The notes beneath the pieces are model-generated. The model made no database searches. It saw nothing but the letters and a program-made list of their open reading frames with translations, and was not told the origin of the DNA. Source: Candidatus Heimdallarchaeum endolithica (GTDB lineage: Archaea; Asgardarchaeota; Heimdallarchaeia; Heimdallarchaeales; Heimdallarchaeaceae). From it: a stretch of DNA of 64,000 nt. Position numbers and translations under genes: made by a program. The stretch spans positions 1,056,001-1,120,000 of the forward strand of contig CP084167.1 in the NCBI GenBank assembly GCA_021513715.1, written 5' to 3'. Shown one piece after another: positions 50,368 through 59,489 of this stretch. The stretch's first letter is position 1. Each line of letters opens with the position of its first letter.

Positions 50368-51468
50368 ATGAACACCACAAAAAAAGTTGCATTGTTGTTT
50401 GTAACAATATTCGCTACAATGAGTGTAGTGAGTCTGGTTGTATCCGGTGATTACTGGATTACAAAAAACGAATGGGTAGATCATGGATCAACCCTTGTTG
50501 AAACGAAATGGATCGATATCTTTCCTACCTATCAGCAGTTCGTTATTCGACCTGAAGTTGAAGGAACAGCTTATTCTACTTATGCTACAGCAGTATGGTT
50601 TTCCTTAAGTTCAACAGTAACGATTTCAGCAACTGTTTCCTCCTCTTGTGAATACAAAACACCAATCGTCTCTGCTTCAGCAAAAACTGAAAATGGAGTA
50701 TCTATATCTGCTTCAGCTGGTATTACGACATCAAAAGAAGTAGGGCAAACAATTGCAATCGCACATACTTCACCCGATGAAGCCATTTTCTCCGCTAAAA
50801 CTATAAAGCTAAAGGTTCAAGTCTATGCACATCACTGGTATTTGCACAAATATGGATTGGATTTCTTCCGAGGGTGGGTAGATCTTGGTATTGATTCATC
50901 AAAGACCCCATGCCACAAAGTCCAACTGAGTTACAAGATTTTGGATCTAGATGTAGCAACTTATATTGGAGTACCTATAGAAAAAGATGATTATATTATT
51001 ACTACGACTAGACCTATCTATGACATTATTATTGAACCAGATGGTTCTTTGAGAAAAGTAATTGTAGGATGGACTACTTACCAAACGTGGTCATATTCTA
51101 ATGGACCTTATCCGTTTGCAGCAAAAACATACAGGGAAACATATGAATACAACAAAAATATCGCTGAAACAACCTATCCTTATGTAGGAGCATATACAGA
51201 AAATCTTTATGTAAAAGAGAAAGTATCTACCTTTGCATCATTATCACTTACTGTGACTAGCTCAGTTGATCTAGGAGCAGGAATAGGTTCAACTAAAGTA
51301 TCTGTAAAAATAACTGGTTCAATAAAAGTAGAAGCGGCTGCTGGAGCGTCAACAAGTCAAATGTACGGATTTAAACCGGGCTGGTATGATCCAGAAAATG
51401 GTGGCCCAACAAAACATCTAAGAGTAAAACAACTAACTTTTGGAAGTTTATGGGTCCAGTTATATTAG
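50368..51468 (+). CDS. Secreted beta-rich protein, aerolysin/ETX-MTX2-like candidate
   Basis: Signal peptide, no C-terminal anchor, two Ser/Thr-rich alternating amphipathic beta-hairpin segments. Confidence 0.6.
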   Translation: MNTTKKVALLFVTIFATMSVVSLVVSGDYWITKNEWVDHGSTLVETKWIDIFPTYQQFVIRPEVEGTAYSTYATAVWFSLSSTVTISATVSSSCEYKTPIVSASAKTENGVSISASAGITTSKEVGQTIAIAHTSPDEAIFSAKTIKLKVQVYAHHWYLHKYGLDFFRGWVDLGIDSSKTPCHKVQLSYKILDLDVATYIGVPIEKDDYIITTTRPIYDIIIEPDGSLRKVIVGWTTYQTWSYSNGPYPFAAKTYRETYEYNKNIAETTYPYVGAYTENLYVKEKVSTFASLSLTVTSSVDLGAGIGSTKVSVKITGSIKVEAAAGASTSQMYGFKPGWYDPENGGPTKHLRVKQLTFGSLWVQLY

Positions 51469-51476
51469 GGAAAATT

Positions 51477-57730: not shown

Positions 57731-59489
57731 AGATTTAATGCTTGATAAGATCAATAGTACAGAAAATATTCCTGTTCCAAAAGGAATAATCAACCAAGTC
57801 ATTGGACAAGATAAAGCGATAGAAATCATAAAAATTGCAGCAAAAGAAAGGAGGAATGTCTTACTACTCGGTAATCCGGGTACAGGAAAATCAATGTTAG
57901 GAAAAGCTTATGCTGAATTAATGGATAAAGAACCAAGACCTGATATTCTTATTTACCCTAATCATGATGACCCTAATTCTCCTGAAGTAATAGAAGTTGA
58001 AGCAGGTTTAGGCTTACCTATTGTCAAAGAATTTAAGAGAATATATGCAAAAGAAAGTTATAAACAAAAGATAAAACAGCGAGTTCCATCTATTTTAATT
58101 GCTCTTATTTACTTAATTTACACTATCTTTGCTGGAAGGTTTGAGATTACTTCTTTTTTGTTTACTGTTCTCGTCATAATTTCTCTAGAGATGATTTTTT
58201 CTACGCAAAAGAAAGTAGATAAGAGATTAATTGTTCCAAATTTAATAATCAAAGAGGAAGAGAATGAAGAAGAGGAAGAAATAGAGGAAGAGGAAGAATT
58301 AGAAGAGGAAAAAGATAACCATCTAACAAATGGCTTCAGTTCTAGATTTATTGATGCCACAGGAGTAGAAGTAGGAAGACTTTTGGGTGATGTTAAACAT
58401 GACCCTTATGAAACTGGAGGATTGGGCACACCTCCTCACGAGAGAGTTATGCCTGGTGCTATTCATCTTGCTAATAAAGGAGTTCTATTTATTGATGAAA
58501 TAGGCGGTTTATCTTATGAAGAACAGATCTCTCTACTAACTGCAATGCAAGAGAGAAGGTTTCCTATAACTGGAAGGAGTACAGGTTCTTCATCTTCATT
58601 AATCCAGACTCAACCAATACCATGTGATTTTGCTCTTGTTGCTGCAGGAAACTATGAAACTATAGAGTTCTTGCATCCAGCTTTTAGAAGTAGGTTTCTA
58701 GGTTATGGTTATGAAGTAAAAATGAATGATTCTATGCCAGATACCCCTGAAAATAGACAAAAAATTGCTCAATTCATAGCACAAGAAGTAAAGAAAGATA
58801 AAAAATTGATTCATTTCAAGAAAGAAGCTGTAGCAGAAATAATAAAAATCGCACAAGAGTTGAGCCCAAAAAAAGATACATTAACACTCTCATTAAGGAA
58901 ATTAGGGGGTTATGTTCGAGCAGCTAGTGATATAGCTAAGAATAGTAAGAAGCAATTTGTAGAAAAAAGCGATGTTAAAAAAGCATTTGAGATTTTACAA
59001 CCAATAGAAGCGCAAGATATTATAAAAATAGAAAAACAAGCGCTAGAAGGATATCAAAAGGAGGGAGTAATTTACATTCCTTCTGAAAAAGAAGCTTCTA
59101 ATGCAATTGGAATATTAAAAACAGTAGTTCTAGACAATAACCAAGTTAATGAAATAGTTATTCTTGGAAGAGAAAAAGACGAATATACTCTTTCCCAGAT
59201 AAAAATTGCACAAACAATAATACATAAACTATATCCAGAAAAAGGAATATTCAATAAGCAAATCATTGTTGAATTTGAAGGAGAAGCAAAGAGAATCAAG
59301 GAAGGAATAGGTTTAGCTATATACCTTAGTATAATATCTGCAATCGGTTTGATAAAGATAAAAAAGAATGAGACTGCAATTGGAGATCTAGATATACTAG
59401 GAAACATTATTACTCCTTCTTATCCTTCAGTGAGAACGGCTAATGCTAAAAGAATAGGACTTAAAGAGATAGAGAAAATAGAAATATAA
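57723..59489 (+). CDS. lonB: LonB-type membrane AAA+ ATPase with degenerate protease domain
   Basis: VIGQD, GNPGTGKS, two-TM insert, GDVKHDPYETGGLGTPPHERV, LFIDEIG, HPAFRSRFLGYGYEV; Ser-Lys dyad not recognisable. Confidence 0.85.
   Translation: MSEDLMLDKINSTENIPVPKGIINQVIGQDKAIEIIKIAAKERRNVLLLGNPGTGKSMLGKAYAELMDKEPRPDILIYPNHDDPNSPEVIEVEAGLGLPIVKEFKRIYAKESYKQKIKQRVPSILIALIYLIYTIFAGRFEITSFLFTVLVIISLEMIFSTQKKVDKRLIVPNLIIKEEENEEEEEIEEEEELEEEKDNHLTNGFSSRFIDATGVEVGRLLGDVKHDPYETGGLGTPPHERVMPGAIHLANKGVLFIDEIGGLSYEEQISLLTAMQERRFPITGRSTGSSSSLIQTQPIPCDFALVAAGNYETIEFLHPAFRSRFLGYGYEVKMNDSMPDTPENRQKIAQFIAQEVKKDKKLIHFKKEAVAEIIKIAQELSPKKDTLTLSLRKLGGYVRAASDIAKNSKKQFVEKSDVKKAFEILQPIEAQDIIKIEKQALEGYQKEGVIYIPSEKEASNAIGILKTVVLDNNQVNEIVILGREKDEYTLSQIKIAQTIIHKLYPEKGIFNKQIIVEFEGEAKRIKEGIGLAIYLSIISAIGLIKIKKNETAIGDLDILGNIITPSYPSVRTANAKRIGLKEIEKIEI

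Follow-up and report, generated by a model that had tools for sequence, protein, structure and literature searches.

What could hold together, in one gene cluster, two proteases of unrelated fold that have each lost their catalytic residues? This question is raised by six genes, here numbered g1 to g6, at positions 50368-59489 of a 64,000-nucleotide stretch of DNA (the window) from Candidatus Heimdallarchaeum endolithica (GCA_021513715.1, contig CP084167.1, positions 1,056,001-1,120,000; label G000:C1:1056001-1120000). The host genome, G000, is a single contig of 3.33 Mb with ∼30% G+C; G001 denotes a sister genome of the same genus, and labels beginning with L denote loci or contigs fetched from relatives. 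A sequence-only reading of the window had proposed that two repurposed pseudo-proteases, a subtilase homologue (g5) and a homologue of the membrane protease LonB (g6), work in one membrane module that exports, presents or delivers the secreted product of g1. Our analysis gives good support to the two repurposed pseudo-proteases in one membrane module; the service rendered to the g1 product is kept here as a conjecture. Judged from their sequences, g5 and g6 are old pseudo-enzymes under constraint, and we propose for the dead LonB the role of an unfoldase or remodeller that works on the basic cytoplasmic tails of its partners.

The g6 protein scored 472.1 bits against the LonB equivalog TIGR00764, under the cut-off of 516.6, and matched neither Lon_C nor ChlI in Pfam. 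It shares with archaeal membrane LonB (MEROPS S16, TIGR00764, PDB 3k1j; ∼40% identity) an AAA+ domain with a two-helix hairpin between Walker A and B, a LID domain and a Lon-fold C-terminal domain. Its ATPase motifs are intact (GNPGTGKS, VLFIDEI, VAAGN, FRSRF and LRKLGG, covering Walker A and B, sensor 1, Arg finger and sensor 2), and its orthologues retain the conserved pore-loop motifs HDP[FY]..GGLGTP and LLTAMQ. The Ser-Lys dyad, in contrast, is lost: the GDSAS that holds the catalytic Ser aligns to EGIGL (Ser to Gly) and the GG..K that holds the catalytic Lys aligns to SYPSVR (Lys to Arg). Every member of the pseudo-LonB clade has lost the Ser, with Gly or Ala in its place, the Lys is mostly Arg, and no orthologue regains the Ser, so that the description of g6 as a LonB with intact ATPase and lost dyad holds. 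Two hydrophobic segments, residues 124-142 and 144-162, align with the membrane insert of canonical LonB. In the pseudo clade the linker that follows this transmembrane (TM) hairpin is acidic and 24-75 aa long, with 17 Asp/Glu among 37 residues in g6, whereas canonical LonBs have a fixed 14-aa linker; the C-terminus of g6 is also shortened.

A profile of the pseudo-LonB clade matched Thermococcus onnurineus LonB (PDB 3k1j) through the C-terminal domain with an E value of 1.5e-153. Among 5.8 billion proteins the clade comprised only seven clusters, at 95, 68, 66 and 54% identity, followed by canonical LonBs at ∼40%. Unlike canonical LonBs, those of Asgard archaea included, the pseudo-LonBs are always paired with a pseudo-subtilase gene and lie on one side of a well-supported branch (Shimodaira-Hasegawa-like approximate likelihood ratio test 99; 7 sequences, IQ-TREE). 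They were joined in a FastTree analysis by the LonB-like proteins of two other genomes, G032 and G036, though long-branch attraction may have contributed to the grouping. The pseudo-protease domain is less conserved than the ATPase core, with identities of 46-60% as opposed to 80-83% towards the orthologues of L035 and L034, and of 34% as opposed to 72% towards that of L037. LonB-like ATPases of a third kind, 533-545 aa long and without a protease domain, are encoded at L049:8655-10256 in G054 and in G048, G052, G056, G058 and G060. In G054, the one neighbourhood fetched, the gene lies downstream of a Toprim-domain gene. These proteins (family f6) were taken to belong to another system, given the absence of the whole protease domain and the adjacent Toprim gene.

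A separate, active lonB had been predicted to exist elsewhere in the genome, and we found it at G000:C1:3315243-3318751 (∼3.315-3.319 Mb), with GDSAS and Lys intact and a Lon_C match of 112.8 bits. Since a dyad-intact lonB is encoded there, housekeeping LonB is supplied separately from g6. The active gene is split into two open reading frames (ORFs) overlapping at TAATG (locus L053, ORFs 444-2570 and 2570-3952). The first encodes a piece of 708 aa that contains Walker A, the TM hairpin and an intein-splicing domain, and the second a 460-aa piece that starts with an IntC-like segment of ∼39 aa ending in ...ILCSN|SGGLGTP. From its sequence this looks like a naturally split intein; the two-frame layout was also found in G001, G003 and G027.

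The second pseudo-enzyme, g5, matched Pfam Peptidase_S8 (PF00082) at 48.9 bits, with a gathering score of 21.8. Its profile matched Tk-SP (PDB 3afg, 3.8e-15) and site-1 protease (E 7e-10), both over the S8 domain only, and through the latter match g5 resembles the membrane-bound subtilases of the site-1 protease type. Alignment to active paralogues from its own genome and from relatives showed that each catalytic column has been replaced: Asp by Ser, His by Ile, the oxyanion Asn by Asp and Ser by Leu. All five g5 orthologues compared, the window protein and four diverged ones, have Ser for Asp, Ile, Leu or Val for His, Asp for Asn, and Leu or Ile for Ser, whereas the active paralogues retain DSG, HGT, GN and GTS. 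No orthologue regains these residues on alignment, and the earlier claim of a subtilase missing its whole catalytic apparatus stands. A domain-wise comparison placed the best-conserved stretch of g5 in its S8-like domain. The middle domain gave a weak Pfam match to ABC_transp_aux, GIFT and DUF4350 being matched only in an active paralogue. In the basic tail, a CxxC...CxxC zinc ribbon was invariant in 6 orthologues.

Active S8 paralogues of ∼1000 aa with an ABC_transp_aux/GIFT-type domain, found in the same genome and in other Heimdallarchaeia, share with g5 a signal, an S8 domain, a large C-terminal ectodomain, a TM segment and a basic tail, and are its probable ancestors. They are only 25-29% identical to g5, which differs from them in the replacement of all catalytic residues, in the zinc ribbon of its tail and in its fixed place beside the pseudo-LonB gene. 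Homologues of this length, present in 47 of 60 relatives, were rejected as g5 orthologues: they are active paralogues in unrelated contexts, such as beside Nop56/fibrillarin in G001. The G001 protein (L030:9637-12624) has an ABC_transp_aux/DUF4350/GIFT-type domain by Pfam, and its gene adjoins both Nop56 and fibrillarin genes. Several active membrane subtilases of ∼1000 aa are also encoded in G000 itself (G000:C1:1405871-1406638, 1420991-1421824 and 1490392-1491216; L009-L011).

Adjacent pairs of pseudo-S8 and pseudo-LonB genes occur elsewhere, with the gene order kept in several diverged contigs. L035 carries the complete cassette, with identities of 58, 47, 46, 35, 46 and 68% for g1 to g6, respectively; L034 has g2, g3, g5 and g6, and L037 has g3, g5 and g6. 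The adjacency of g5 and g6 with its 8-nt overlap is kept in L034, L035, L037 and L038, the last from a strain 95-98% identical. In L046, where the order is g5-g3-g6, the LonB-like protein (35% identical) is likewise without the Ser. G032 and G036, Heimdallarchaeia of another family, encode g5 homologues of 868 and 838 aa (hhalign probability 98.8%, E 8e-17) with no S8 domain by Pfam, each followed by a LonB-like ATPase without the nucleophile. The conserved core consists of g3, the pseudo-S8 and the pseudo-LonB. Outside G000, the g3 profile found nothing in the genomes of the class (1 of 83 positive), and the flanking genes are different in every other contig. In G001 the endonuclease V and DUF2804 genes that flank the cluster in the window are direct neighbours, 134 bp apart, and the cluster is therefore a 9.4-kb indel.

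Reading frames remain intact over 885-946 codons for g5 and 583-651 codons for g6 across lineages that are 32-68% identical. In comparison with L038, the ratio of non-synonymous to synonymous substitution rates (dN/dS) was 0.21 for g1, 0.22 for g2, 0.09 for g3, 0.20 for g5 and 0.125 for g6; g4 reached 0.63 on 7 differences only. Taken by domain, values lay mostly at 0.06-0.23, with 0.42, on few differences, for the g6 pseudo-protease domain. In deeper pairs dN was well below dS for both g5 and g6, with dS saturated. Neutral decay of g5 and g6 is excluded, because dN/dS is low, the frames are intact, the substitutions are shared and synteny is kept. The earlier reading had named beforehand three outcomes that would count against it, namely a gene order conserved nowhere, neutral evolution of the two genes, and recovery of catalytic residues by alignment, and for all three the opposite was found.

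The remaining single-pass proteins share the membrane topology of g5. Each of g2 to g5 has an N-terminal hydrophobic segment, a C-terminal TM segment and a tail of 37-57 aa with 13-20 Lys/Arg, and basic tails of 34-57 aa are present on g2-g5 in all orthologues. Only five relatives of g3 were found in 1.84 billion representatives, and they adjoin pseudo-S8 and/or pseudo-LonB genes in L034, L035, L037, L043 and L046. The end of the g3 tail carries a conserved [LI][KR]x[AS][IL]xx[NH][KR]-like motif that is recognisable even in the G036 variant. The AlphaFold2 model of g3 (predicted local distance difference test score, pLDDT, 65) is a beta-sandwich; no fold was assigned, as cohesin-like matches were weak (E 0.02 or worse) and the rows of the language-model atlas uninformative. 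The g2 protein matched Pfam Big_7 at 6.9e-9 and has orthologues at L035 (47%) and L034 (33%). By blastp, g4 is similar to g2 and to a 470-aa protein of L035; L034 and L037 lack this gene, which is accessory.

Everything found to co-vary with the motor lies in the cytoplasm: the basic tails, the CxxC...CxxC of g5, the tail motif of g3 and the acidic insert of g6. Taken with the intact ATPase and pore-loop motifs and the lost nucleophile, they lead us to propose that g6 is an unfoldase or remodeller engaging tails at the membrane. The core would comprise a LonB-derived AAA+ ring that still binds and hydrolyses ATP and threads polypeptide without cleaving it, the subtilase-derived ectoprotein with its single TM anchor and cytoplasmic zinc-ribbon tail, and the small beta-sandwich type-I membrane protein g3, with the Ig-like g2 and g4 as accessories. 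A pseudo-LonB hexamer would sit in the membrane with its pore facing the bilayer and engage the long, unstructured Lys/Arg-rich tails of its partners, aided by the clade-specific acidic insert. ATP would be spent on assembling or actuating an extracellular scaffold of dead subtilase, cohesin-like and Ig-like ectodomains, or on extracting and recycling it; in this scaffold the cleft of the dead subtilase may have become a peptide-binding site instead of a cutting site. We infer that the proteins form a complex and that g6 engages the tails, and likewise the direction of work and the part played by g1. Co-folding the pseudo-LonB with the g5 TM segment and zinc-ribbon tail scored 0.17 against a mark of 0.32, which is evidence neither way. 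We give a probability of about 40% to the reading that the six genes form one membrane-embedded envelope module of Heimdallarchaeia, sporadic among genomes, in which the dead LonB works as an unfoldase or remodeller on the basic tails of its partners.

The layout of the cluster was re-found as first described, with six co-oriented, tightly packed genes in the ORF list of the window (Table 1). From g1 to g6 the intergenic distances are 54, 28, -4 (or +5), 4 and -8 nt, and the ribosome-binding sites are GGTGA upstream of g1 to g5 and GGAGA upstream of g6. The start of g4 was revised: ATG 53866 is most likely the true start, because GTG 53857 falls within an AGGTGA Shine-Dalgarno sequence and the 99%-identical L038 orthologue is called from ATG. 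The stem-loop that had been noted after the first gene, ahead of three single-pass proteins with basic tails, was also recovered, together with the TM and tail topology of g2-g4. It has a 10-bp stem (GAGGAGTTCA/TGAACTCCTC) at 51477-51499, followed by TGCCTTTTTC. The element is conserved as structure and not as sequence, since the g1-g2 gap of the L035 cluster holds a stem-loop of different sequence with a T run. It is probably an attenuator or terminator, or an RNA-stabilising element.

Table 1. Coordinates in the window of the six genes and of the stem-loop between g1 and g2
Feature	Position	Strand	Description
g1	50368..51468	+	Secreted Ser/Thr-rich beta protein, 366 aa (P0001); N-terminal hydrophobic signal/anchor; probable aerolysin/ETX-like fold
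Stem-loop and T-rich tail	51477..51509	+	Between g1 and g2; 10-bp stem, 3-nt loop
g2	51523..52851	+	Type-I membrane protein, 442 aa; Ig-like (Big_7) repeats, C-terminal TM, 41-aa tail with 19 Lys/Arg
g3	52880..53860	+	Core component, 326 aa; beta-sandwich ectodomain, C-terminal TM, basic tail
g4	53866..54948	+	Ig-like g2 paralogue, 360 aa; C-terminal TM, 57-aa tail with 20 Lys/Arg
g5	54953..57730	+	Pseudo-subtilase ectoprotein, 925 aa; signal, S8-like domain, middle domain, TM, basic tail with zinc ribbon
g6	57723..59489	+	Pseudo-LonB, 588 aa; AAA+ with TM hairpin, acidic insert, Lon-fold C-terminal domain; 8-nt overlap with g5

The first gene had been read as encoding a secreted protein resembling a pore former. 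The secreted and beta-rich character stands, with a single N-terminal hydrophobic segment in g1; the likeness to pore formers comes from weak but concordant matches of a low-confidence model. The protein matched no Pfam family at an E value of 0.01 and no NCBIfam family, it fell outside PF01117 and PF03318, and its profile found nothing meaningful among PDB sequences. Only three homologues were found in 5.8 billion proteins. The sequence has two Ser/Thr-rich stretches of alternating polarity flanking a turn, the second of which (DLGAGI) is invariant among the homologues. In the AlphaFold2 model (pLDDT 48), strands span 23-28 residues, and the top rows of Foldseek and VIA searches were nearly all aerolysin-family proteins (parasporin-2, epsilon toxin, aerolysin, LSL, lysenin and Cry23/Cry51), at E values of 1e-3 to 6e-2 and Z scores of 3-4.3. 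A language-model search (ESM-atlas) returned ETX/MTX2, aerolysin and monalysin clusters at 0.86-0.90. On these models we lean towards an aerolysin-like fold for g1. Proteins of the aerolysin and ETX/MTX2 families, such as parasporin-2, epsilon toxin and aerolysin, are likewise secreted, about 350 aa long and Ser/Thr-rich, with very long predicted beta strands; g1 differs from them in having no Pfam match and no evident activation by cleavage, and the predicted likeness comes from the weak matches just given.

An effector would be expected to vary, and for g1 the outcome was divided. In the close clade only one gene is better conserved, and g1 keeps its position in L035, whereas the distant cassettes L044 and L051 have another secreted beta-rich protein in its place. 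These two proteins are related to each other (E 9e-5) and not to g1, and when the g1 family was compared by hhalign with the 390-aa secreted protein encoded in the G032 cassette, no relationship emerged, so that this protein is not a g1 homologue by sequence. The first-position protein of L051 (G032), the only one of the two that was submitted to the search, drew the same aerolysin/ETX leads as g1. Such a swap fits an exchangeable client, cargo or effector. A paralogue of g1, P0127 (32% identity; no Pfam family at an E value of 1), lies on another contig of the metagenome-assembled genome that carries the L034 cassette (L040:6194-9488). It is found there between an HTH_5 regulator and an ArdC-N/MPTase-PolyVal gene, near an RNA ligase and a C25 peptidase, a neighbourhood that may be a mobile-element context.

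With g1 included, the proposed module would treat this abundant secreted product, probably of the aerolysin type, as the likeliest cargo or client for the scaffold to hold or release. We put forward tentatively, as a possibility to which we give rather low odds, that a protease-dead LonB motor and a protease-dead subtilase scaffold hold, assemble or release an exchangeable aerolysin-type pore former at the cell surface. Several observations weigh against this proposal or against the underlying module. The conserved stem-loop separates g1 from g2-g6, a genome that carries the cassette has a g1 paralogue elsewhere, and distant cassettes have a different protein, or none, at the g1 position; g1 accompanies the cassette only in the closest variants. 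The link between g1 and the core is thus weaker than the sequence-only reading had assumed. The predicted fold of g1 itself comes from a model with a pLDDT of 48, E values no better than 1e-3 and Z scores below 5. The pseudo-protease domain of g6, which evolves much faster than its ATPase core, may be partly dispensable, and the basic tails may be a mere extreme of the positive-inside rule. Finally, the rarity of the system, as counted by its g3 marker, implies an accessory role.

The alternative that survives best, although we regard it as unlikely, is a conflict system. Here g1 would form pores as an effector, directed at competitors or deployed in abortive infection, and the membrane proteins would serve as sensor, regulator or immunity, loosely like gasdermin-protease operons. 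An indel of this size missing from the sister species at the same locus, a g3 marker in a single genome of the class and flanks that differ in each contig would suit such a system, but neither an integrase nor direct or inverted repeats above background mark the island. Fast-evolving ectodomains (35-47% identity against 68% for the motor) would also be expected, as would the exchange of the secreted first protein between variants whose two versions both draw aerolysin/ETX leads; yet a search of viral contigs with the g1 alignment found no relatives, and PADLOC defence models gave nothing for g1-g5 and only generic AAA matches for g6 (RtcR, E 5e-11; IetA and mad8, E 1e-3 or worse). The parallel with gasdermin operons meets two further obstacles: g1, with its secretion signal, does not act in the cytoplasm as gasdermins do, and dead protease partners exclude activation by cleavage.

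Distinctly doubtful is the idea of a dedicated dislocase, in which the pseudo-LonB extracts the co-encoded tail-bearing proteins and passes them to the active LonB or the proteasome, with g1 belonging to an unrelated neighbouring transcription unit. Persistence of the ATPase and pore-loop motifs after loss of the nucleophile agrees with such extraction, and long unstructured basic tails suit initiation. It is hard to explain, however, why four surface proteins with no other function should have an extraction motor of their own, and membrane-protein turnover is already carried out by the canonical LonB. The stem-loop with its T run and the stray paralogue set g1 apart, as this idea requires, whereas the g1 at the same position in L035, with 58% identity, tells against it. 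Improbable, in turn, is a static scaffold, in which the pseudo-LonB would be a hexameric membrane platform that binds ATP in order to assemble and does not use it to translocate, and the module as a whole would be a passive structure for adhesion or at the surface. Adhesin-type ectodomains (Ig-like Big_7 and weak cohesin-like matches) and a poorly conserved pseudo-protease chamber agree with it, but Walker B, sensor 1, the Arg finger and the pore-loop motifs have all been retained over long divergence, which favours a motor that still cycles through hydrolysis. The view that both protease homologues are decaying, functionless duplicates, suggested by the loss of all catalytic residues and the rare distribution, is effectively refuted by long intact frames at 32-68% identity, low dN/dS in most domains, substitutions shared clade-wide and conserved synteny and gene overlap.

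For the reading that we prefer, a module built around two repurposed pseudo-proteases, there are precedents in principle, neither of them homologous to the cassette. Chloroplast FtsHi proteins are membrane AAA+ pseudo-proteases that form part of an ATP-driven chloroplast protein import complex (PMC8197885), and in the Ycf2-FtsH12-FtsHi complex, as in g6, a membrane-anchored AAA+ protease has lost its protease site and kept its ATPase (PMC8197885). FtsHi nevertheless belongs to FtsH/M41 and not to Lon/S16, and to another domain of life, so that homology extends to the AAA+ fold only and the comparison is an analogy of principle. Mycosin (MycP) stabilises type VII secretion complexes independently of proteolysis (PMC5082899; an essential structural role is also described in PMC8131196). 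Like g5, it has a subtilase fold and a C-terminal TM anchor, is encoded in the operon of a membrane machine with an ATPase, and plays a structural role (PMC5082899, PMC8131196). It differs in keeping its triad, and g5 is three times longer, with an extra middle domain and a zinc-ribbon tail. Against the mycosin family TIGR03921, g5 scored 27.7 bits, well short of the cut-off of 278.75, and a Pfam scan found no EccB/C/D/E or FtsK-type family in the cluster.

Protease-dead membrane AAA+ motors are already known for FtsH, and in the searchable literature we found no description of such a protease-dead archaeal LonB paralogue or of the cassette. The loss in LonB is matched, gene by gene, by another dead protease whose fold is unrelated, and by cytoplasmic tails that co-evolve; this would offer a clean natural example of two pseudo-enzymes recruited to one machine. 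If g1 is a true aerolysin-type pore former, it would be a rare archaeal member of the family with a dedicated membrane apparatus, and if the tentative proposal above is true, this would be a new ATP-driven toxin-delivery or pore-control system in the closest archaeal relatives of eukaryotes. So rare a g3 marker (1 of 83 genomes of the class) speaks against any general part in the cell biology of Asgard archaea or in eukaryogenesis. Being small (9 kb) and self-contained, the cassette is suited to heterologous reconstitution.

Two minor observations concern the island and its surroundings. Over positions 49391-60641, dS between the window and L038 varies ∼40-fold between adjacent genes (0.009 for g4, 0.16 for g6 and 0.41 for DUF2804), which points to recombination between strains across the island. 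The empty site of the sister genome (G001:C1:1051684-1054293; L047, L048) contains a full DUF2804 gene 83% identical to that of the window, and, next to it, a partial second DUF2804 copy (residues 153-342) with 95% identity, possibly a recombination scar; the endonuclease V match at this site carries one in-frame TAG.

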